Source: Candidatus Woesearchaeota archaeon
GTDB taxonomy: Archaea; Nanobdellota; Nanobdellia; Woesearchaeales; CG1-02-33-12
Length of the DNA stretch: 47,511 nucleotides
Direction of reading: 5' to 3'
Assembly: GCA_017609385.1 (NCBI GenBank)
Contig: JAFCEA010000005.1
Location: forward strand, 1 to 47,511
Below are positions 3,471-43,539 of the stretch, piece after piece. Position numbers and translations under genes: made by a program. A model generated the notes under the pieces. It was given only the letters and a program-made list of their open reading frames with translations. It was not told where the DNA came from and did no database searches. Every line of letters begins with the position of its first letter. Within the stretch, counting starts at the first letter, position 1.

Positions 3471-3580
3471 GCGGGGGTAGCAAAGTCTGGTCAAATGCGC
3501 AGGACTTAAGACTAAATATAATTACAAGGCAGAAATCCTGTCTCTTAGTGAGTCCATGGGTTCAAATCCCATCCCCCGCA
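3471..3580 (+). tRNA. tRNA-Leu(UAA) with an anticodon-loop intron of about 24 nt
   Basis: Acceptor GCGGGGG/CCCCCGC plus A. Anticodon stem CAGGA (3500-3504)/TCCTG (3536-3540), loop CTTAAG..A with TAA at 3507-3509. Long variable arm TCTCTTAGTGAGTC. T arm ATGGG-TTCAAAT-CCCAT. Intron is about 3511-3534; I could not draw a clean BHB, so exact boundaries are uncertain. Confidence 0.88.
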
Positions 3581-5444: not shown

Positions 5445-6557
5445 ATGATGAAAACAAAAACATTGAAAATTATTGTATTAATGTTTTTAATTAATACACT
5501 ATTTGTAACAGCATCAATAGACTCTAGCTATAAATGTAAGGAAAGAAATTGTATGGAAGGCACAGAAATAGATTTTACTGTAAACATATACAATAACATC
5601 AACAAAAGCATCAATGTAGGTGATGTATACATAAAAGATAGGGATTATGGTACTGTTCTTGGATTTGACATTAGTGAGGATGTAGTTTTAGGTCCAGATG
5701 AGGTTCATAGCTTTAACTTCACAAGTCTGGTTAAAGCTCCAACAAAGGGCTATACATTTTACTATGTTCCGTGTTTTAAGATGTCTTATGCTAATAAACC
5801 AGAAGAGGTTTTTAATATATGTGGTAAGACTGTGAAAAGTTTTACAGTTCTTCCATTGTCAAAGATTGAGTGCAAAGAGGATTCTGAGTGTGAAGAGGAT
5901 GAATACTGCAACACGTTCAGTATTTACAAATGCAGGAAACTGGAATGCAATCCTAATGAAACTGCAGTTAATCATTCATGTGTTTTATCAGAGCCAAAAA
6001 AAGTAGTTATCATTAACTGGAGAAATGTTATATTAACAGCAGGATTTATTGTTTTGGCTGTTATTTTATTGTTTTTGTTTATAGGAAGAAAACAAAAGTA
6101 TGGAAGTGAGGATTATGTGGATATGACTACTGAATTCACTGAAGAGAAAGAAACCACTAAAGAAGAGAAGTTAGATAAGGAGTATAAAAAGATTGAAGAA
6201 TCCTTTAGAGAATTAAAAGAAGATAAACCTAAAAAAGATGAAGAGAATAAAGAAATTAAGGAACTTACTCAAGAACCTAAACAAGAAAAAGCTGAAAAAG
6301 ATGAAGAAAAGGATCATAAAAAGGATGTTGGGAGGGATGAAGAAATTAAAAAAAAGAAAACTAAACCTAAAAAGAACAACAAAAAGAAATATAAGCGCGT
6401 AAAGCAAAATAAAACTTATGACGCAGTTCCAGACTATGTGGTAGATGAGCAAAAAGAGGAAACTAAAAAAACAGATCAGGAAATAGAAGACAAAGACATA
6501 GAAATTATGGATTACAGCGGTTATGAAGATGATGATGAAAGTAAAGATATATTATAA
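5445..6557 (+). CDS. Single-pass membrane protein: Cys-rich ectodomain and long Lys/Glu-rich cytoplasmic tail
   Basis: Signal/TM MMKTKTLKIIVLMFLINTLFVTA, Cys-rich region (CKEDSECEEDEYCNTFSIYKCRKLEC), TM ILTAGFIVLAVILLFLFIG, then a K/E/D low-complexity tail. No recognisable family. Confidence 0.45.
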   Translation: MMKTKTLKIIVLMFLINTLFVTASIDSSYKCKERNCMEGTEIDFTVNIYNNINKSINVGDVYIKDRDYGTVLGFDISEDVVLGPDEVHSFNFTSLVKAPTKGYTFYYVPCFKMSYANKPEEVFNICGKTVKSFTVLPLSKIECKEDSECEEDEYCNTFSIYKCRKLECNPNETAVNHSCVLSEPKKVVIINWRNVILTAGFIVLAVILLFLFIGRKQKYGSEDYVDMTTEFTEEKETTKEEKLDKEYKKIEESFRELKEDKPKKDEENKEIKELTQEPKQEKAEKDEEKDHKKDVGRDEEIKKKKTKPKKNNKKKYKRVKQNKTYDAVPDYVVDEQKEETKKTDQEIEDKDIEIMDYSGYEDDDESKDIL

Positions 6558-6576: not shown

Positions 6577-6649
6577 GCCCCGGTGGCTTAGTGGCTATAG
6601 CGCCACCTTGGTAAGGTGGAGGTCGCGAGTTCAACTCTCGCTCGGGGCT
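6577..6649 (+). tRNA. tRNA-Thr(GGU), intron-less
   Basis: 73-nt cloverleaf. Acceptor GCCCCGG/TCGGGGC plus T. D arm GCTT-AGTGGCTA-TAGC. Anticodon stem CCACC/GGTGG with loop TTGGTAA. T arm GCGAG-TTCAACT-CTCGC. Confidence 0.9.
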
Positions 6650-6696: not shown

Positions 6697-6922
6697 GGGC
6701 CTGTGATCTAGTGGCTATGATGTCACCTTGACGATTTAAAAAAATCAAAATGGTGAATATCCCCGGTTCGAACAGCTTCTTGCTAAGCTGGCACGCAAAT
6801 GGTTACGCTCATTTGATACGCAAAGAGCGACATTCAATTGCTCTGCAATTGAAGTCCCTCACGCTCGCTAGCGCTCGCGAAAGTTAGAGCTCGCAAGTGC
6901 TTTGAAAGTCCGGGTGGGCCCA
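6697..6922 (+). tRNA. tRNA-Val(GAC) with two introns: 17 nt at 37/38 (6734-6750) and 136 nt at 59/60 in the T-loop (6773-6908)
   Basis: Removing both introns leaves a 73-nt cloverleaf. Acceptor GGGCCTG/TGGGCCC plus A. D arm ATCT-AGTGGCTA-TGAT. Anticodon stem TCACC/GGTGA with GAC at 6730-6732. T stem CCCGG (6762-6766)/CCGGG (6910-6914). Both introns are framed by 3-4-3 bulge-helix-bulge motifs (see findings). Confidence 0.85.
6796..6861 (+). repeat. 66-nt conserved intron module, copy 1 (inside the tRNA-Val T-loop intron)
   Basis: Identical at 65/66 positions to 43432-43497. Two predicted hairpins: cgctc/gagcg and ttcaattgc/gcaattgaa. Confidence 0.9.
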
Positions 6923-6925
6923 TGA

Positions 6926-6987
6926 CAGCTGCTTGCTCAGCTGGCACGCAGTCCAGCATAAAGCCGGACACGCTCGCTTTGCTCGCA
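6926..6987 (+). repeat. Partial paralogous copy of the tRNA-Val intron flanks, just 3' of the tRNA (GC-rich, non-coding)
   Basis: 6926-6950 cagctgcttgctcagctggcacgca versus intron 6773-6797 cagcttcttgctaagctggcacgca (23/25; the two differences are compensatory in a 6-bp hairpin). 6969-6987 cacgctcgctttgctcgca versus intron 6860-6880 cacgctcgctagcgctcgcga. Confidence 0.7.
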
Positions 6988-7032
6988 ACAAATGAAGAGG
7001 TAAATAACATCAGAAGAATAAAAGAGATTAAA

Positions 7033-8046: not shown

Positions 8047-8105
8047 TTTGAAAAAATATTGGAAAAACAGAAAATCCTTATAAAAATACTGGAACCATTA
8101 AGGAG

Positions 8106-9164
8106 GTGAATAATATCAGAAAAATAAAAGAAGAATTTTCGAAATACTTTATCTTTTTATTTTTTATTATAGCTGCTTATATGGTTTTTTTGGTTGTCAA
8201 ACCATTTATAGTTGCAATATTAACTAGCATTATAATCTCATATATCTCCTACCCCTTATACAAATGGATTAATAAAAAAACCAAGAGAAAAAACCTTTCT
8301 GCTATTATAGTAACAATGCTTGTAATAATTTTAATAATCACCCCAATTTTATTTATCGTGAATTCGCTTACAAGAGAAGTAACAACTGTTTATACTGATT
8401 CAAAACAAAGGATCGCAGAGGGGAATATAATTGATACAGAACCTGGCTCTAATTTATGGAAATTAAACTCTTTCCTGGTTAATATAGCAGAGAAACCGCA
8501 AATTAGTTCTTCCCTCGACAATATCACAAACACTATAATAAGCTCATTATCAAATTTTATATTTACAATACCAAAAAGAATACTTAGTTTTTTTGTTATG
8601 ATATTTTTAATCTTTTTCATGTTAAGGGATGGGGAGTTAATGGTTAAAAAGATAAAATATCTTATACCATTAAAAAATCATTACCAAAATAAGATAGTAA
8701 AAAAATTTGGCAGTGTTACACGTGCTGTTATATATGGACACTTTATAACAGCATTAATCCAAGGCATGGTTGGTACATTAGGATTATATATATTTGGAAT
8801 TAAATCACCCCTTGTATGGGGGGGGATTATGATAGTTGCATGTATGATACCCTTTGTTGGCGCACCAATTGTATGGTTTCCCCTTGGAGTTTTTAAACTC
8901 ATTATTGGTCTGACATCTAGCAACAGTTCTGCAACCATTATGGGTATAGGTCTTCTTGCTTATGGCTTTATTATAGTCTCATCAATTGACAATTTAATAA
9001 AGCCTAAAATTATTGGTGATAAGGCAAGGATTCATCCTACAATCATACTGTTGGGGATATTGGGTGGATTAGCTATTTTTGGATTTATAGGAATTGTTGT
9101 AGGTCCCTTGATATTATCACTATTTTTGACATTTGCTGAAATCTATAAAACAGAGATTATCTAA
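8106..9164 (+). CDS. AI-2E family (PerM/UPF0118) membrane transporter
   Basis: Polytopic membrane protein with family-typical FMLRDGE and IPFVGAPIVWFP segments. GTG start directly after aaggagg. Confidence 0.78.
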   Translation: MNNIRKIKEEFSKYFIFLFFIIAAYMVFLVVKPFIVAILTSIIISYISYPLYKWINKKTKRKNLSAIIVTMLVIILIITPILFIVNSLTREVTTVYTDSKQRIAEGNIIDTEPGSNLWKLNSFLVNIAEKPQISSSLDNITNTIISSLSNFIFTIPKRILSFFVMIFLIFFMLRDGELMVKKIKYLIPLKNHYQNKIVKKFGSVTRAVIYGHFITALIQGMVGTLGLYIFGIKSPLVWGGIMIVACMIPFVGAPIVWFPLGVFKLIIGLTSSNSSATIMGIGLLAYGFIIVSSIDNLIKPKIIGDKARIHPTIILLGILGGLAIFGFIGIVVGPLILSLFLTFAEIYKTEII

Positions 9165-9167
9165 AAG

Positions 9168-10661
9168 ATGAAATTAAAAGTAAAGGATATTGATATTGCA
9201 ACAGGCTGGCCCTTAGTAGCAGTACTAAATGAGCTTGATGCACTAAAACTTGATCTTCATTATGAAGACAGGCTTAAAATTAAAAAAGGAAGGAAGAGTG
9301 TTATTGCAATAATAGATATTACTGAGTCCAAAAAAGTAGTTCCAACTGGCCAAATAGGATTGTATGAGGAGGTTTTAACCAAGCTAAATGCAAAATCAGG
9401 CAATTTTGTTGATGTATCTCTTGTTGAAAAGCCTGTTTCCATACAGTATATCAAGAGGAAATTAAAAGGAAAAAAGCTTGGTTATAAGGAGATTTATAAG
9501 ATTATTGATGATATAAACAATAACAGATTAAGTGAGATAGAGATAACTTATTTTGTTTCTGCCTGCTACACAAAAGGCCTTGATCTTGATGAAACTGTTT
9601 CATTGACAAAGGCAATGATCAATACAGGAGGAATATTAAAATTGAATAAATACCCTGTAATGGACATGCATTGTATTGGGGGGGTTGCTGGAAACAGGAC
9701 AACAATGGTTGTAGTGCCAATAGTTGCTGCTGCTGGCCTGACAATTCCAAAAACATCATCAAGGAGCATAACAAGCCCTTCTGGGACAGCTGATACAATG
9801 GAGGTTTTATGTAATGTATGTTTTTCAATCAAAGAAATAAAAAATATTATTAAGAAAACAAATGCCTGTCTTATATGGGGCGGCTCTGTTAACCTTGCGC
9901 CTGCAGATGATAAGATAATAAGAATAGAGCATCCTTTATCACTTGACCCAGAGGGCCAGCTTCTGGCCAGCATTTTGGCAAAGAAAAAATCTGTTTCTGC
10001 AACACACTTACTTATTGATATACCTGTTGGCAAAGGAGCTAAGATAGAAAGCAGGAAAAAAGCACTTTACTTAAAGAGGCTTTTTGAATCAATATCAAAA
10101 AAGCTTGGAATAAAAATTAGGGTTGTAATCATAGACGGCTCTCAGCCAATAGGAAATGGCATTGGACCAGAATTAGAGGCAAGGGATGTTATGTGGGTTT
10201 TGGAAAATGATTTAAGACAGCCTCTTGATTTAAAAGAAAAATCAATTAAAATGGCTGGACTGCTTCTTGAGATGGGGGGAAAGGCAAAAAAAGGGGCTGG
10301 CACTAAAAAGGCATTGAAAATACTTAACTCAGGAGCTGCTTACAGGAAAATGATGCAAATCATAAGAGCTCAGTGCGGTAAGAAGATAAAAGCTGATGAC
10401 ATAAAGATAGGGAAATTCAGATATAACTTTAGAGCTAAGAAATCTGGTGTTGTAACCCATATAGATAATGACTCAATCTCCAAGATAGCAAGGGCTGCAG
10501 GAGCTCCACTTGACAAAGGTGCAGGAATCTACCTTCATAAGCATGTTAAGGATTCTGTTAAGAAAGGAGATAAAATATTTACAGTTTATGCTAAAAATAA
10601 GCAAAAGCTAGGTTATGCTGTTAATGTTCTCAGAAAGATAGATGGTGTTGTTGTTAAGTAA
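9168..10661 (+). CDS. deoA: AMP phosphorylase (archaeal thymidine-phosphorylase-family enzyme)
   Basis: About 500 aa with the extra N-terminal domain (MKLKVKDIDIATG...DRLKI) ahead of the glycosyltransferase-family-3 core (HCIGGVAGNRTT, TSSRSITSPSGTADTME). Confidence 0.78.
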   Translation: MKLKVKDIDIATGWPLVAVLNELDALKLDLHYEDRLKIKKGRKSVIAIIDITESKKVVPTGQIGLYEEVLTKLNAKSGNFVDVSLVEKPVSIQYIKRKLKGKKLGYKEIYKIIDDINNNRLSEIEITYFVSACYTKGLDLDETVSLTKAMINTGGILKLNKYPVMDMHCIGGVAGNRTTMVVVPIVAAAGLTIPKTSSRSITSPSGTADTMEVLCNVCFSIKEIKNIIKKTNACLIWGGSVNLAPADDKIIRIEHPLSLDPEGQLLASILAKKKSVSATHLLIDIPVGKGAKIESRKKALYLKRLFESISKKLGIKIRVVIIDGSQPIGNGIGPELEARDVMWVLENDLRQPLDLKEKSIKMAGLLLEMGGKAKKGAGTKKALKILNSGAAYRKMMQIIRAQCGKKIKADDIKIGKFRYNFRAKKSGVVTHIDNDSISKIARAAGAPLDKGAGIYLHKHVKDSVKKGDKIFTVYAKNKQKLGYAVNVLRKIDGVVVK

Positions 10662-18697: not shown

Positions 18698-19961
18698 ACT
18701 ACCACCTCTTTTTTTAAAGTATTATGCTCTTTTAGCCTGAAGTTTATATCATTTAATATATTCATAAAGGTTATAAATGCATCATAAGGATTGTCATAAG
18801 GATTAAAATATTTATGCACATCACCATCATTGAACCACTTTGTGCACATGTAATAAAAATGGTCGCTTGTCTGAAGATTTCTCCAGTCATTAATAAGTTT
18901 TTTATCATTTGATTTTTTTATTGCTTCTTCTATAAGATATATCTCATTTATTGCTGATTTTTGCATGTCATTCCCATCCCATGCACTTGTATCTCTCTCA
19001 ATATCTGCCCATGAAACAGGGCTGTGAATATCTAGTTCTGCAACAGGATTATATGTTTTTACTGCCTCACTTGGAGTTTTGAAATCATTGTCAGGGTGCT
19101 TCAATAGCTCCTGAGGCAAGTATCTCAAAAAATTAAATATCCCTGTATCTGCCCACTGGTGCTCACCAAATGTCTCATAATCCATAAAAAGATTTACTAG
19201 ATTGCCATTTCCATTAACAGCATTAATCCAACTAGCATATTTATCAACTGTCAGCGGCCATTCCTTCCAGCTTCTGTCTGAAAACCTGAATGCAACATCA
19301 TCAGATAACTTGTAGTTTTTAAGCAAAAGCTTTATCCTTGATGTTGTTTTTGGCCTGTAAATAAAGTTGGGTGATCTCCAACCAAGTATATGATCAGCAC
19401 CTTCTGCCAGTATTCCCTTATAACCCATTGATTCAACAAAATTTGCAAGCTCATTATTATAGACAAGCTCTGTATTCCTGAAAATAGATGGATTTTGCTT
19501 AAACAAGCTTCTTATCTTTTTGTTATGCAAAATAACCTGCTCCTTAAATTCCTGTTTTGAATGCAGGAATGCAAGTGAATGATAGTATGTTTCATCAAGT
19601 ATTTCAACCTTGCCAGTATCAACTAGAATGCAAGTGAATGATAGTATGTTTCATCAAGTATTTCAACCTTGCCAGTATCAACTAGATCCTTAAATGATTG
19701 TAAAACATCTGGCATAAGCTCCTCAAATTGTTCCAAGATAACACCTGAAAAAGAATAGCTTATCTTAAATTCTTCATGCTTGTTAAGCAAATCAAGCATT
19801 AGCTCATTGGTTGGGAGATAACATTTTTCTGCAACCTTTTTTAGTATACCCAGATTCTTCTTCTTATTAGTATAACTATGATTCTTCCCAATCTCAAAAA
19901 CATTATATTCTCTCAGCCTATAAGGCTGGTGAACCTGGAAATAAAAACAAATTGATACCAT
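18694..19961 (-). pseudogene. Glycoside hydrolase family 57 (alpha-amylase/alpha-glucanotransferase-like), frame broken by a 59-bp tandem duplication
   Basis: The N-terminal fragment (19623-19961) starts MVSICFYFQVHQPYRLREY, the GH57 signature, and ends ...ETYYHSLAF*. The C-terminal fragment (18694-19530) continues the family. Deleting one 59-nt copy gives ...YYHSLAFLHSKQEFKEQVILHNKKIRSLF..., a 1209-nt open frame. Confidence 0.8.
19568..19685. repeat. Perfect 2 x 59-bp tandem direct duplication
   Basis: aatgcaagtgaatgatagtatgtttcatcaagtatttcaaccttgccagtatcaactag occurs at 19568-19626 and again at 19627-19685. Confidence 0.95.
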
Positions 19962-29123: not shown

Positions 29124-29249
29124 TTATCTTCTCCTTTTCTTCTTTGGTTTTTTCTTGACTTTTCTCTTGGCTTTCTTCTTAGCCTTTTTCTTAGGTTTTT
29201 TCTTGACTTTTCTCTTGGCTTTCTTCTTAGCCTTCTTCCTTGCTGCCAT
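29124..29249 (-). CDS. 41-aa polybasic protein (about 75% Lys/Arg) containing a 16-aa tandem repeat
   Basis: Hand translation: MAARKKAKKKAKRKVKKKPKKKAKKKAKRKVKKKPKKKRRR*. The ATG is preceded by gaggtga at a 7-nt spacing. Not in the ORF track (too short). The 48-bp repeat period runs 29146-29241. Confidence 0.5.
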   Translation of the reverse strand: MAARKKAKKKAKRKVKKKPKKKAKKKAKRKVKKKPKKKRRR

Positions 29250-40626: not shown

Positions 40627-43245
40627 TCAAACCTCATACCTTAGGATAGCAGCTATCTTGCCAAACTCCCTTAGCTGGATGCCCTCTCTTGTTTCTGTTG
40701 ATATTATCTTAACTGTAGTGCCAACTGTTTTTGCCAGCTTTTCCATTTCATCTATTGTATTGTCATCAAGGCTTTCTGAAAGCAATAAAGTATCTACGAC
40801 TCCAATCTCAAGGTTTTTCTTTACTTCATCAAGGCCATAGCTGACCATTCCTGGCTTTGTTGACAATAAATTAAAGAATTTTCCCATTATCTCTTTTTCA
40901 GCTGCTACCTCTTCTTTTGCCAGTACATCCTGGGATCTGTCTAATAATTCCTGCAGGCCAAATTCTTCGGTATAAGATAAATCCTTTATTGCAATTATCT
41001 TGTTTTTCACTTCTGTGGTTATATAACCCCCATCAATAAAATCATATTTTGTGGGGCCAGGGCCACCAACAATTATTCCCTTAAGATCTTTTAGTGTTAG
41101 AAACTGGTTTTTCATATATTCTGCAACCTTTTTATAGTGGTCTTTTGCAGCGCCCTCTCTTATTCTTGCAAAACGAGCTGCTGAATTATGGACAATTATT
41201 CCATTTGCTATGAAGTTTTTGTTTTTGACTGATATATCAATCATTTTTACTTTCTTATTGATTTTTTCTATCTTGTTTATCTTAATTGGAAGAATTGGAT
41301 AATTGTAAATAATCTCTAGTTGATTATACAGTTTTTTATCTTTAATATTAGATAAAATTGAATTTTTGAAAGTTTGTTTGCTCATCATTCTTTCATTTCT
41401 AAAAAAGTTATTAACTTTGGGAAACAATTCAAGATTATAGCCTGATTTTTCTATCAATTTCCTTATTTTTCTTCCTGAAACTATTATTTGTCTGGAATAG
41501 CTTGAATCTGATTTTTTATTAAGGAGAGCACTTAATTTATTAGTTTTTTCATGAAAGCTGAAACCAATGTGTTTTTTGAACAATTGAATTGATTTTTTTT
41601 CAGTTATATCAACTGTAAATCTTGGATTATTGCTATATTTATTTGCTTTATTGTCATATTCCAACAATGAACTTAAAATAGAAAACCTTAACAGTGCAAG
41701 TTGGGTATGTTGAGCCAATTTCTTATTATTTACCCCCAAGGCAATTCCTCTTTTGATATTAACATATCCATCTGCGTCAAATAATCCTCTTAAGAAAGCT
41801 GCAACAATCCCATTATCAGATTGGAGTATTTTTTTAGGGATTTCAGAATTTGAGGCTTTCCTTATTTCCAGGAATTCTTCTTTGATTAATCTAACCAATG
41901 GTCTGCTAGTAAATCTTATTTGATGGTAGTTTTTGCTTTCTCTAAATCTATAGCTGGAATTTATTTTGAAGAATTGATTGAATTTTCTCTGGTAAGTTAA
42001 CGCTAATTGTTTATTTTGCTCAAAGAAAGTAACCCTATCAGTTTCTATGCAACCATCATCTCCTATGAGATATCCTAGAAATTGAGCAAACTCTTCATTT
42101 AAACTATTTGGCAAATTTATATTTTTATACATATAAGGCTGGGTATAATCTTTTAAAAATTTATCAAAATTAATATTTAAGCTATTACACACCATTTTTA
42201 ATGGCATCCTGCATGCAGTTGATTTACCAACTTCATAACGGGAGATTGTTGTTTGTGCTAAACCTGCTTCTTCTGCTAATTGCCTTTGAAGCAATCCCTT
42301 TTTTAATCTTCTTTTCTTTAGAAATTCCTGGCCTTCTCTGGTTATGATAAAAGAATTATAATATTTTTTTGAATTTATTTCTTGTATTTTTCCTTTGATG
42401 TATATTTTTTCAGGCATTATTAGATAATCTCCCTGTTTTAATTCCTCAGCAGATTTTTCAATGATTCTTTCAGAAGTTGCTACAAAAAACAAATGATCTT
42501 TAGATGATTGAATTTCTAAACGTGGATTTTTAGTAATAATCTTGTAAATTTTGTTCTTCTTTACATTCCATTTGTCTATGATATTTGAATCAAAAATTGC
42601 AAAATTGTTCTTAATCGTAACAGACTTAATTATGTTTGGATTATGAATAGTTTCAATTTTTGGAAGAGAACCATCAGATAATTGGATTAAGGACTCATTT
42701 ACAAGACATTGTCCTCCTGCCCTTTGTTTTCCAGGCACTTGTGAATGAGTTTTAACCAAAGGGATTATTGTTTTTCCCTTTAAAAGAGCAATGTTTGCAT
42801 CTCTCCTGTCTAGTACAACAAGACCATAAACCTCTTTTGTGTCAAGCATATCTCTCAACAAATCAAGAACAAACTGCTTGTCACACCTGTATATTCGGGT
42901 ATTTAAAGGCACTGGCGGCTCTATGCTCCATACTTCCAAATCAATCTGACCTTCTCTTTCAGCAACATTTCCAGAGAAAACAGCCAAGCCATTTTTTGGT
43001 GTCTGCTTAAATAAGCGCAAGTGCTGAATCATTCTTTCAAGGCCATCTATAACATTCTTCCTTGTTGTGGCTGATTTTATGTTAGCAGCAGTCCCCTGCT
43101 CCTGTTTCAGATGGTTTATTATTTTGTTTAAGTCATATCCTGTAGGCATATACACTGTAATAAGCTCTGTGTGCGGCCTTCTGAATACCTCGAGCTTCTT
43201 GATAAATTTCTTTAGTTCATACCTTTGTTTTTCAGTTAGTGCCAT
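40627..43245 (-). CDS. prf1: Peptide chain release factor aRF1, interrupted by an intein after the GGQ motif
   Basis: NIKS motif at residues 55-58. ...VPGKQRAGGQ (res 171-179) | intein (res 180-687) | SAARFARIREGAAKDHYKKV... The C-terminus ends GKIAAILRYEV. Exteins total 364 aa. Confidence 0.92.
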   Translation of the reverse strand: MALTEKQRYELKKFIKKLEVFRRPHTELITVYMPTGYDLNKIINHLKQEQGTAANIKSATTRKNVIDGLERMIQHLRLFKQTPKNGLAVFSGNVAEREGQIDLEVWSIEPPVPLNTRIYRCDKQFVLDLLRDMLDTKEVYGLVVLDRRDANIALLKGKTIIPLVKTHSQVPGKQRAGGQCLVNESLIQLSDGSLPKIETIHNPNIIKSVTIKNNFAIFDSNIIDKWNVKKNKIYKIITKNPRLEIQSSKDHLFFVATSERIIEKSAEELKQGDYLIMPEKIYIKGKIQEINSKKYYNSFIITREGQEFLKKRRLKKGLLQRQLAEEAGLAQTTISRYEVGKSTACRMPLKMVCNSLNINFDKFLKDYTQPYMYKNINLPNSLNEEFAQFLGYLIGDDGCIETDRVTFFEQNKQLALTYQRKFNQFFKINSSYRFRESKNYHQIRFTSRPLVRLIKEEFLEIRKASNSEIPKKILQSDNGIVAAFLRGLFDADGYVNIKRGIALGVNNKKLAQHTQLALLRFSILSSLLEYDNKANKYSNNPRFTVDITEKKSIQLFKKHIGFSFHEKTNKLSALLNKKSDSSYSRQIIVSGRKIRKLIEKSGYNLELFPKVNNFFRNERMMSKQTFKNSILSNIKDKKLYNQLEIIYNYPILPIKINKIEKINKKVKMIDISVKNKNFIANGIIVHNSAARFARIREGAAKDHYKKVAEYMKNQFLTLKDLKGIIVGGPGPTKYDFIDGGYITTEVKNKIIAIKDLSYTEEFGLQELLDRSQDVLAKEEVAAEKEIMGKFFNLLSTKPGMVSYGLDEVKKNLEIGVVDTLLLSESLDDNTIDEMEKLAKTVGTTVKIISTETREGIQLREFGKIAAILRYEV
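41185..42708 (-). mobile_element. Intein (508 aa): Hint splicing domain + XRE-type HTH + LAGLIDADG homing endonuclease
   Basis: Block A CLVNESLIQLSDGS (Cys1), block B SSKDHLFF (SxxH), LAGLIDADG motifs FLGYLIGDDGC and FLRGLFDADGYV, terminal IIVHN followed by the +1 Ser. HTH LLQRQLAEEAGLAQTTISRYEVGKS (nt about 42160-42333). Confidence 0.88.
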
Positions 43246-43352: not shown

Positions 43353-43539
43353 GGGGCTGTAGGGTAGCTTGGTTCATCCTTTCTGGTTTGGGTTGTTAAA
43401 ACACAAGAAACCAGACGACCCCGGTTCAAACCAAATGGTTACGCTCATTTGATACGCAAAGAGCGACATTCAATTGCTTTGCAATTGAAGTCCCTCAAGT
43501 TCATTACGCTCACCAGTTGTGAAAGTCCGGGCAGCCCCA
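43353..43539 (+). tRNA. tRNA-Pro(UGG) with two introns: 17 nt at 37/38 (43393-43409) and 95 nt at 59/60 in the T-loop (43431-43525)
   Basis: The spliced product is a 75-nt cloverleaf. Acceptor GGGGCTG/CAGCCCC plus A. Anticodon stem TCTGG/CCAGA with TGG at 43389-43391 and G37. T stem CCCGG (43420-43424)/CCGGG (43527-43531). Both introns are framed by 3-4-3 BHB motifs. Confidence 0.85.
43432..43497 (+). repeat. 66-nt conserved intron module, copy 2 (inside the tRNA-Pro T-loop intron)
   Basis: 65/66 identical to 6796-6861. The single difference is t43479 versus c6843, in a hairpin loop. Confidence 0.9.

Follow-up and report, generated by a model that had tools for sequence, protein, structure and literature searches.

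A modular three-hairpin repeat in the T-loop introns of tRNA genes of Woesearchaeota-type archaea

The DNA analyzed here is a 47,511-nucleotide (nt) stretch of a Candidatus Woesearchaeota archaeon (contig JAFCEA010000005.1, positions 1 to 47,511, forward strand; assembly GCA_017609385.1), that is, 'the window'. A preliminary description, made from the sequence alone, reported a 66-nt module shared by introns in the T-loops of two unrelated tRNA genes of the window, tRNA-Val and tRNA-Pro. We find that this 66-nt stretch is real and belongs to a widespread repeat of three hairpins with which T-loop introns are filled; in one Woesearchaeota-type clade of DPANN archaea, many tRNA genes have a bulge-helix-bulge intron at 59/60 whose standard content is this repeat unit. 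The explanation that we favor, and hold to be reasonably probable, is a mosaic interspersed repeat, similar to the repetitive extragenic palindromes (REPs) and bacterial interspersed mosaic elements (BIMEs), that occurs mainly as a spliceable 59/60 intron, is exchanged by DNA recombination that preserves its orientation, and is removed by the splicing endonuclease and a ligase.

The 66-nt stretch and the unit to which it belongs

The degenerate 66-mer matches the window at exactly two + strand sites, 6796-6861 and 43432-43497; shuffled sequences are expected to contain none. A pairwise alignment of the two sites is identical at 65 of 66 positions, as first reported, and the exact degenerate match at both sites bears out the only difference (c6843 and t43479), which is the central base of the triloop of the long hairpin. 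A repeat finder stretches the pair to 71 nt at 96% identity; in the tRNA-Pro copy the identity ends at the point where a third hairpin (hp3) has decayed. Because pieces shared by the orthologous introns of relatives (see below) also flank the 66-mer in the tRNA-Val intron, the 66-mer belongs to something larger: it is not the self-contained, discrete module that had been proposed, and constitutes two of the three hairpins of a unit of ~83 nt.

This unit is GC-rich and consists of hairpin 1 (hp1), a linker (RYAYGCA), hairpin 2 (hp2), two variable bases, and hp3 (GCUCGC-loop-GCUCGC); the reported 66 nt are an hp1 of type A, the 7-nt linker, and an hp2 of type T1. The hp1 is a 6-bp stem with the loop CUUGCU (type B) or GUUACGCN (type A). 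When only the loop and linker serve as anchors, the two arms of this stem are CAGCUU/AAGCUG in 102 units, CAAAUG/CAUUUG in 32, CAGCUG/CAGCUG in 16, and CAACUG/CAGUUG in one, and the arms are almost never mixed. The hp2 occurs as four cassette types: T1, the type in the window (GAG.GAC.A.UUCAAUUGC-NNN-...), T2 (GUCCAGC-AUAAA-GCUGGAC), T3 (GG.GGGC.A.UUGAAUU-AAAA-...), and T4 (AG.GGGUUU.GCU-UAAA-...). Types T1, T3, and T4 have in common a base of 2-3 bp, a 1x1 mismatch, and a segment of 3-4 bp (T1 and T3) or 6 bp (T4) under the upper stem; a bulged A is present in T1 and T3, and T4 has instead a second 1x1 mismatch higher up. The hp3 is composed of two G-C pairs, a 2x2 pyrimidine mismatch, two more G-C pairs, and a variable loop of 3-4 nt.

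The hairpins of the unit covary. On three alignments (A1, A2, and A3) the proposed stems are 99.0%, 98.7%, and 99.0% paired, respectively, and 3-5 pairs per alignment are changed on both sides (five in A2); when the same alignments are slid as controls, pairing is 24-55%, and none of 500 shuffles reaches the observed pairing or covariation score. The 9-bp stem originally drawn (ttcaattgc/gcaattgaa) is upheld, with 99% pairing in relatives and one compensatory pair. The first hairpin of that drawing (cgctc and gagcg, separated by 14 nt) has to be given up: it shows no compensatory changes, one of its pairs is disrupted in 7 of 21 relatives, and it cannot form in units with the B-type hp1. The supported hp1 is instead CAAAUG/CAUUUG, at 6796-6801/6810-6815 in the tRNA-Val copy.

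Searches of Rfam, both at the gathering threshold and at E<=5, returned nothing at 6773-6990 or 43431-43525, so neither locus matches a family there; only two tRNA matches elsewhere in the window reach gathering. On inspection by eye, no C/D boxes (RUGAUGA, CUGA), H/ACA pocket with ACA, K-turn, or hammerhead core fits the unit. The GAAAGUC at the 3' splice site, which we considered as part of a hammerhead, is simply the splice motif.

Host tRNA genes and their predicted splice sites

Neither host gene is detected in the raw sequence by ARAGORN or the Rfam tRNA model. After in silico removal of 6773-6908, ARAGORN reports tRNA-Val(GAC) with a 17-nt intron at 37/38; after removal of 43431-43525 a cloverleaf is recognized, but with the anticodon-loop intron displaced by 3 nt and the gene labelled Leu(AAG). 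Parsed manually, the latter gene has the anticodon stem TCTGG/CCAGA, the loop UUUGGG|17-nt intron|A, and a short variable loop and is therefore tRNA-Pro(UGG), the identity given in the preliminary description. Both inserts are located at position 59/60 of the T-loop; the same structural site is occupied in two unrelated tRNAs, and, as had been argued, this is not a duplicated tRNA gene.

The tRNA-Val gene (6697-6922, + strand) has the exons 6697-6733, 6751-6772, and 6909-6922, an AT-rich 37/38 intron (6734-6750), and the 59/60 intron (6773-6908; 136 nt, 49% GC vs 33% for the window). This last intron begins with a B-type hp1 (CAGCUU-CUUGCU-AAGCUG) and the linker GCACGCA at 6773-6797, which overlap the first two nt of the reported module; the 25-mer recurs in >100 related units, in which its closing pair covaries (U-A and G-C). 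The module follows at 6796-6861, with hp1(A) at 6796-6815 (CAAAUG / GUUACGCU / CAUUUG), the linker ATACGCA at 6816-6822, and hp2(T1) at 6825-6860 (GAG.GAC.A.UUCAAUUGC-UCU-GCAAUUGAA.GUC.CUC). The hp3 box (6863-6878, GCUCGC-UAGC-GCUCGC) has 2+2 G-C pairs around the 2x2 pyrimidine mismatch and the variable loop; it is 100% paired in relatives, and its inner pair covaries between G-C and A-U. An extra half unit with a third GCTCGC box (6889-6894) and the intron tail GUGCUUUGAAAG occupy 6879-6908, so the entire insert reads hp1(B), linker, [hp1(A), linker, hp2(T1)], hp3, extra GCTCGC box, and tail (module parse 1B-L-1A-L-..-3-3h). The tail sequence AAGTGCTTTGAAAG recurs in many related introns; its UGAA pairs with U54-G57 of the T-loop, and the 3' splice bulge is AG|U.

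The tRNA-Pro(UGG) gene (43353-43539, + strand) has the exons 43353-43392, 43410-43430, and 43526-43539, a 37/38 intron located manually at 43393-43409, and a 59/60 intron at 43431-43525. Its copy of the module (43432-43497) contains hp1(A) at 43432-43451, the linker ATACGCA at 43452-43458, and hp2(T1) at 43461-43496 with the triloop UUU; a decayed hp3 box (GUUCAUUACGCUCAC) and the tail CAGUUGUGAAAG follow at 43499-43525. The UGAA of this tail pairs with U54-A57, and its CCAGUUG can pair with CAAAUGG at the 5' end of the intron. An orthologous intron (locus L032) retains a better hp3 box, AGTTCGCTATGCTCAC.

A third complete unit is located 3 nt past the 3' end of tRNA-Val (6926-6986, + strand, 62% GC), outside the tRNA and upstream of a dehydrogenase gene; it consists of hp1(B), GCACGCA, hp2 of type T2 (GUCCAGC-AUAAA-GCCGGAC), and hp3. 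A covariance model built on the A/T1 unit (R1) finds these three full units and no others in the window: 6796-6878 (105.7 bits), 43432-43513 (101.8 bits), and 6926-6986 (32.9 bits, E 1.6e-6). The window has two other tRNA genes, at 3471-3580 and 6577-6649, neither with a T-loop intron, so two of its four tRNA genes are occupied; one of these other genes has a long variable arm, is probably Leu(UAA), and has a 37/38 intron, and the other is tRNA-Thr(GGU).

The junctions of the inserts fit the logic of archaeal bulge-helix-bulge introns, with a central helix that covaries. The outer helix is the T-stem, and in the central helix U54-R57 pairs with a YGAA located two bases from the 3' end of the intron. 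Of the 125 introns listed (see below), 100 have this helix complete, with four pairs; R57 and its partner form A-U in 51 cases, G-C in 35, and G.U in 22. At the splice sites the bulges read AA|N and AG|U, the 3' bulge being AG|U in 105 of the 125. Together, the T-stem, the 4-bp U54-R57/YGAA helix, and the two bulges make up the recognition motif of the archaeal splicing endonuclease. We infer that the cuts fall at 59/60, so that excision by this endonuclease and closure by an RNA ligase would restore a normal T-loop, UUCRAAU; since the genes are apparently the only copies of the tRNAs at these loci, splicing must work. For another DPANN archaeon, ARMAN-2, a 13-nt 59/60 intron with a relaxed motif in pre-tRNA-Cys(GCA) was cleaved in vitro by the epsilon2 endonuclease of that organism (PMC3239211), and DPANN endonucleases with an L3 loop have been reported alongside disrupted tRNAs (PMC5829648).

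Distribution in public genomes and metagenomes

The loci fetched from related genomes and metagenomes are numbered L001-L168. Contigs orthologous to the window were fetched with the genes adjacent to the two tRNAs (L37Ae for tRNA-Pro and a 2-hydroxyacid dehydrogenase for tRNA-Val). A genome scan with the exact pattern of the long hp2 stem (TTCAATTGCNNNGCAATTGAAG), one genome per species, returned 30 stretches, ~21 from metagenome-assembled genomes (MAGs) of the Woesearchaeota/Nanoarchaeota type (some mislabelled Methanosarcinales). In all 21 the hairpin has the same architecture, in most cases within T-loop inserts of various tRNAs and in some just behind a tRNA. The bacterial matches to the pattern (L017-L021, L028, L029, L037, and L044) are chance palindromes, with no family context and no covariance-model match. 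Copy number per genome can be given as a lower bound: in the retrieved stretches of one related MAG (CAYOHL01), at least 10 tRNA genes have a T-loop intron. A scan of JGI metagenomes with hp1 plus linker returned at least 120 stretches; scans of the viral sequences in IMG/VR with the hp1B-plus-linker and hp1A-plus-linker patterns returned none, and we reject viral carriers.

Our census, to which the counts that follow refer, contains 166 distinct hp1-plus-linker units among the matches listed, from 165 fetched loci and the window (two trailer copies were reassigned by eye). The unit is at the 5' splice site of a T-loop insert in 88 cases, deeper within such inserts in 21, directly behind a tRNA 3' end in about 22, and without a tRNA nearby in about 27 (~1/6); about 80% of the copies are attached to tRNA genes. 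Many copies thus exist beyond the two loci first noticed, and they are not restricted to T-loop introns, as had been supposed: units also occur in tRNA 3' trailers, in tandem arrays, as one inverted copy, and in tRNA-free intergenic DNA. The thought that the module might turn out to be a generic repeat independent of tRNAs therefore holds for the ~1/6 of copies without a tRNA, and most copies are still linked to tRNAs.

When every candidate 59/60 insert was removed before running ARAGORN, at least 125 distinct tRNA genes from no fewer than 10 amino-acid families were called, including those for Ser (GGA, GCU, and UGA), Glu, Val (GAC, UAC, and CAC), Pro, Ala, Arg, Gly, Lys, and Phe; among the matches listed, 122 of 125 restored genes carry recognizable pieces of the family. 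The inserts of these 125 genes have a median length of 110 nt (range 34-310 nt); the commonest intron, 87-90 nt in total, is one unit plus the tail AAGTGCTTTGAAAG (in a longer form, AAGUGCUUUGAAAG). Intron units share the orientation of the tRNA in 124 cases and oppose it in none. All of the intron copies are at 59/60 and none at other tRNA positions, in a survey that was aimed at 59/60 inserts and covered other sites less than exhaustively. The 37/38 introns of the same genes are AT-rich and unrelated to the unit: their GC content is 6-24% (that of tRNA-Pro recomputed by hand for the corrected coordinates 43393-43409), compared with 42-62% for the units and 33% for the window.

The occurrence of the unit outside tRNA genes links the tRNA introns to an interspersed repeat family. 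The tRNA-free copies are no more degenerate than those in introns; they are intergenic, beside stop codons or ribosome-binding sites, and in either orientation relative to their neighbors, and a few truncate a neighboring open reading frame (ORF). The surrounding regions are rich in genes for LamG surface proteins, a diversity-generating retroelement and typical target genes of such elements, toxin-antitoxin genes, and AAA ATPases. We also considered that copies abutting ORFs (the ends of LamG-type genes in L127, L069, and L053 and a gene ending in 'KLSSTGYIHSGG...') might be introns of mRNAs, but their excision rebuilds no conserved reading frame; they lie at gene ends or slightly beyond, and the unit is itself open as a reading frame on its antisense strand.

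Several observations concern the genes near these copies. A conserved stretch (GCTAGGYTGAGCATTAAAATCAGGRCTGRARGGAATATTTTTAC) adjoins several tRNA-free units (L034 3680-3760; L106, - strand, ~6180-6240; the gene starts in L069 and L152); read on the opposite strand, it codes for an N-terminal signal region (..WKESKDKxKNGLCNNKSVKIFxPALILML..) that is shared by paralogous secreted proteins, so units are often just upstream of the genes for these proteins. The diversity-generating retroelement in L104 (1076-6636, - strand) is beside four units and encodes a reverse transcriptase (RT), bAvd, and an FGE-sulfatase/C-type-lectin target gene that is followed by a GC-rich hairpin. In L053, the end of a target gene of the Lcl_C (DUF1566) type has a similar GC-rich hairpin, with a repeat unit downstream.

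Cassette combinations and turnover

Every combination of the four hp2 and two hp1 cassette types occurs. The tRNA-Pro intron of the window is also found in two contigs of NCBI MAGs (L001 and L002). Genomes that are slightly further removed share the exons and have an intron at that site, but one of different content. Those other introns share the hairpin CAGCUKCUUGCUMAGCUG, the linker GCAYGCA, a variable second hairpin, and the box GCUCGC-NNN-GCUCGC. In relatives the orthologous tRNA-Pro genes are upstream of L37Ae. Even where the neighboring genes of two genomes are 86-95% identical, their orthologous introns, in tRNA-Pro as in tRNA-Val, contain different cassettes.

Rearranged units are also present. 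Units are nested in one another's loops (L008 and L069) or arrayed in tandem within an intron with an 83-nt period (L164 and L043). Three loci (L154, L062, and L040) have the order 5' exon, unit, 3' exon, unit, 3' exon, unit remnant, the product expected from unequal crossing-over between a unit in the intron and one in the trailer. Introns of 34-45 nt retain only the two ends of the unit and look like internal deletions. One tRNA-Val(CAC) gene (L157) has no intron and a unit in its trailer, and one unit behind tRNA-Val in L042, from which the dehydrogenase gene is missing, is inverted relative to both neighboring genes.

Both hp1 and hp2 thus come as a small set of discrete, interchangeable cassettes whose combinations differ between orthologous introns, and duplications, arrays, deletions, and an inversion are all present. 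The swapping of cassettes together with the duplications, arrays, and deletions argues for exchange and homogenization at the level of DNA, probably by gene conversion and unequal crossing-over that keep the orientation of units within tRNA genes. Spread through RNA, in which an excised intron is reverse-transcribed and reintegrated, would also account for the sense orientation within introns and for copies outside tRNA genes, and RTs exist in these lineages (e.g., in the retroelement beside four units in L104). However, this was the sole RT seen, at a single locus, and RTs of diversity-generating retroelements are specific for their own template RNA; in addition, the copies outside tRNA genes lack the intron tail or a circular junction, and tandem arrays and 3'-exon duplications are products of events in DNA, so we regard a route through RNA as scarcely credible.

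The site itself looks older than the repeat family, as judged from a single comparison: a more distant Woesearchaeota relative (L37Ae 76% identical) has an unrelated 31-nt intron, with no covariance-model match, at 59/60 of tRNA-Pro. The tRNA-Pro gene of that relative (L167/L168, 2820-2990) appears to have three introns (in the D-arm region, at 37/38, and the 31-nt intron at 59/60), none related to the family.

A second repeat (TTTCAGGGGATTCCGGTCGAAGACTAGGAATCGCC...ACCAGATTTTT...), which is not in the window, is found behind tRNA-Thr in relatives, with tandem copies of the 3' end of tRNA-Thr (L009 1-300; L008 ~9440-9640); it also occurs within the T-loop introns of L046, L059, and L144, and in some T-loop introns its reverse complement replaces hp2.

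Constraint, function, and mobility

The conservation of the unit is high. In orthologs that keep the A/T1 combination, the 66 nt are identical at 63 of 66 positions, compared with 70-84% at third codon positions of the adjacent L37Ae gene; in L042, an 85%-identical relative, the triloop is the only difference. Copies that were ascertained through hp1 alone vary mostly in three places, namely the triloop of hp2, the two bases that precede hp3, and the loop of hp3; the stems, bulged A, mismatches, and linker are nearly invariant.

These comparisons also explain the similarity of the two copies in the window. Had the module been copied once and recently from one of the two host introns to the other, whether by gene conversion or by intron transposition, very high identity and sharp ends would result, and some relatives (L003-L007) do have other cassettes in the tRNA-Pro intron. 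But the same sequence, apart from the loops, is found in tRNA-Pro of L016 and L032, in tRNA-Val of L025, L031, and L035, and in other tRNAs of several genomes, and the identity to copies from other species (63-65 of 66) equals that within the window, so there is no signal of a recent event within this genome and we consider such an event very improbable. The two copies are nearly identical because their cassette combination is the same and the family to which they belong hardly varies outside its loops; no special Val-Pro relation, private event, or Val/Pro-specific function is involved, and the 65/66 identity, as judged from these alignments, reflects constraint across the family.

Neutral concerted evolution would not slow divergence between species, so some selection must act. 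It operates either among elements, where turnover is fast and only units that stay intact continue to spread, or on the host, through a function of the RNA or through the need for a self-folding intron that leaves an essential pre-tRNA undisturbed. Whether the family persists as selfish DNA only or also benefits the host is not settled, and the two readings are not mutually exclusive.

Several results weigh against a mosaic repeat exchanged by recombination as the full explanation. Conservation well above that of synonymous sites is also expected of a functional RNA, as are the high GC content, the 124:0 orientation in introns, and the constancy of unpaired positions (the bulged A, the 1x1 mismatch, and, in hp3, the U.C/C.U mismatches); a repeat that is purely selfish predicts all of these less directly. 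Both public scans used exact patterns, which inflates the apparent conservation of the parts covered by the pattern and limits the detected range to one clade. Removal of the inserts by splicing is inferred from their sequences; in many introns the inner helix is weak, short, or irregular in strict register, so the motif is relaxed and an endonuclease of broad specificity has to be assumed. As to mobility, the one comparison of a filled (L127/L140) and an empty site (L137/L146) reveals no target-site duplication beyond possibly 1 nt, the left flank has only a loose consensus and no clear target motif, and no transposase, recombinase, or other cognate protein was identified among the few neighboring ORFs scanned.

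Some of these results would be explained if the three-hairpin unit were a small RNA of benefit to the host (a protein-binding scaffold or a decoy) that is matured by tRNA processing, with tRNA genes as the platforms of its expression and many copies raising its dosage. The units begin exactly at processing sites, that is, at the 5' splice site in the 88 cases noted above and 0-4 nt past the discriminator base in trailers; their GC content is like that of structural RNAs in a 33% GC genome; variation is in the loops, with fixed stems, bulged A, 1x1 mismatch, and linkers; tRNA-free copies are no more degenerate than those in introns; and conservation far exceeds that of synonymous sites, with a strict orientation in introns. 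However, cassettes are swapped freely in orthologous introns of close relatives, and remnants of 34-45 nt occur without visible harm; hp2 is represented by four quite different cassettes, one a plain 7-bp hairpin; one trailer copy is inverted; some copies truncate adjacent ORFs; and the unit matches neither Rfam nor, on manual inspection, the C/D, H/ACA, or K-turn signatures. We therefore view a functional small RNA as rather unlikely to be the principal explanation, and are equally doubtful of the corresponding route, in which the splicing endonuclease frees the intron unit, probably as a circle, and RNase Z sets the 5' end of the trailer unit.

Enzyme-driven transposition is another alternative. 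REP elements are mobilized by RAYTs, and elements derived from IS200/IS605 by TnpA; similarly, the unit could be a non-autonomous, single-stranded DNA hairpin element that is moved in trans by an HUH/tyrosine transposase able to recognize its imperfect hairpins and for which T-loops, trailers, and gene ends are tolerated or preferred sites. The imperfect hairpins with a conserved bulge and mismatch, the lack of terminal inverted repeats and of a visible target duplication, and the presence of copies in either orientation outside tRNA genes are consistent with this mechanism; also, cassette junctions all follow a ...YNCGCA motif (GCACGCA, ATACGCA, GCTCGCA, and GTTACGCA), and left flanks nearly always end in A. 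Against it, no transposase gene was found (in scans short of a systematic search), the 'target' in the left flank is merely a loose consensus, and the 124:0 orientation in introns is unexpected if insertion is free of orientation. Moreover, the intron always brings its own YGAAAG tail, complementary to the tRNA, so the spread of whole introns fits better than insertion of the bare unit, and we judge this mechanism distinctly unlikely. We also considered and rejected a miniature inverted-repeat transposable element: the ends of the unit (CAGCT... and ...GCTCGCA) are not inverted repeats, and the single filled/empty comparison lacks a target duplication.

A further possibility goes beyond the mosaic repeat that we favor: a mobile RNA/DNA element of archaea, not described before, through which tRNA introns are created and remodeled. 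Such a non-autonomous repeat would be recognized through its imperfect hairpins by a trans-acting protein and could enter T-loops, by insertion or by copying, thanks to its own YGAAAG tail, from which the splice motif is built; the excised, probably circular RNA may accumulate and be active itself. We offer it as a speculation that is more doubtful than probable. If it is correct, this lineage preserves intermediates of intron gain (trailer copies, 3'-exon duplications, and presence/absence alleles) and supplies a concrete mechanism for 'intron transposition'.

Comparison with known systems

In bacteria, REPs and BIMEs are short, imperfect palindromes with conserved mismatches and mosaic arrangements that are tied to RAYT transposases. 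The family described here resembles them in its imperfect palindromes, its few hairpin types combined in mosaics with conserved linkers, its intergenic positions near gene ends, its tandem clusters, and a consensus that is kept between related species; it differs in that ~80% of the copies are attached to tRNAs and are strictly oriented within them, and we know of no REPs that occur as tRNA introns.

Functional RNAs are also associated with archaeal tRNAs (e.g., the C/D box guide in the intron of tRNA-Trp and the tRNA-C/D sRNA co-transcripts of Nanoarchaeum). The unit resembles them as a structured RNA that lies within or beside a tRNA precursor and would be freed by the enzymes of tRNA processing; unlike those single, conserved guides, it has no C/D or H/ACA boxes, K-turn, or Rfam match and is present in many copies with swappable cassettes.

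How archaeal tRNA genes gain non-canonical introns is an open question: the Thermoproteales showed that introns are gained, not how (PMC4090602). The intron families of the Thermoproteales were read as large-scale tRNA intron transposition, a process thought to act at the DNA level with no established mechanism (Fujishima et al., 2010, as summarized in PMC4090602). The likeness to these families that was suggested for the two window introns is borne out, now with similar introns in many unrelated tRNAs of a DPANN lineage of the Woesearchaeota type: near-identical introns are shared by tRNAs of different identity (here Val, Pro, Ser, Glu, Ala, Arg, Gly, Lys, and Phe), which implies gain after speciation. 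The Thermoproteales families belong to another phylum and occupy many positions, whereas the introns described here are confined to one site (59/60) and are built of longer, modular units; the family also extends to trailers, tandem arrays, and non-tRNA DNA and has visible intermediates (3'-exon duplications, deletions, and presence/absence).

The intron of ARMAN-2 described above (PMC3239211) is closer in its T-loop site, DPANN host, and exon-intron motif logic, with a motif that is likewise partly relaxed; however, known 59/60 examples are short (13 nt), unstructured, and unique to a gene, while those described here are 87-136 nt or more, GC-rich, folded into three hairpins, and repeated in and outside tRNAs. 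In the model for tRNA-Thr of Caldiarchaeum, disruption of the gene is linked to a mobile element of 1.8 kb that encodes a recombinase (PMC3293823). Mobile DNA and recombination are likewise tied to the gain of introns or fragments, and duplicated 3' parts of the tRNA are found beside the insert; the unit here differs in being 83 nt and non-coding, with no integrase in the few neighboring ORFs scanned. In the literature on archaeal non-canonical tRNA introns, as far as our incomplete coverage extends, we found no account of a long, GC-rich, three-hairpin modular unit, of restriction to one site, of trailer, array, or non-tRNA copies, or of visible intermediates.

The system thus offers more than those available: one recognizable unit at a single site in many tRNAs, which is also found behind tRNAs and elsewhere, with arrays, duplications, deletions, an inversion, and intron-less alleles in public data. 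With such intermediates visible, models of intron gain based on recombination or on enzymes can be tested directly. A practical consequence concerns annotation: undetected disrupted tRNA genes and incomplete tRNA sets have been suspected in DPANN genomes, those of Woesearchaeota included (PMC5829648), and tRNAscan-SE 2.0 has models for non-canonical introns that were trained with sequences of Crenarchaeota, Euryarchaeota, and Thaumarchaeota (PMC8450103). Given these training lineages and the failure of ARAGORN and Rfam to detect the two genes in the window, tRNA sets and completeness estimates based on tRNAs may be understated in Woesearchaeota-type genomes.

Other features of the window

The surroundings of the two tRNA genes encode aRF1, L37Ae, RNA polymerase subunit P, and prefoldin; the nearest relatives of L37Ae and the matching contigs are labelled Woesearchaeota, Nanoarchaeota, or Nanoarchaeia. 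The aRF1 gene (40627-43245, - strand) encodes 872 aa, compared with ~364 aa in relatives; it carries an intein with LAGLIDADG homing-endonuclease and helix-turn-helix domains, inserted directly past the catalytic GGQ motif (...RAGGQ|CLVNE...IVHN|SAARFARIR...).

A direct repeat of ~37 nt (AAGAGGTRAATAAYATCAGAARAATAAAAGA), which includes a ribosome-binding site, is present at 6991-7027 and 8097-8133, once before the dehydrogenase gene and once before the gene that follows it (AI-2E transporter family). The 85%-identical relative (L042, 7580-7620) has one copy of this repeat and no dehydrogenase gene, so that gene looks to have been gained or lost by recombination between the repeats; L042 has the inverted unit at the same spot.

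Two further repeats are present in the window. A 59-nt segment at 19567-19684, possibly within a coding region, is perfectly duplicated in tandem (two copies, 100%), and a 12-nt periodic repeat at 29125-29244, with at least seven units of 63-96% identity, probably codes for a low-complexity, Lys/Glu-rich segment on the - strand.

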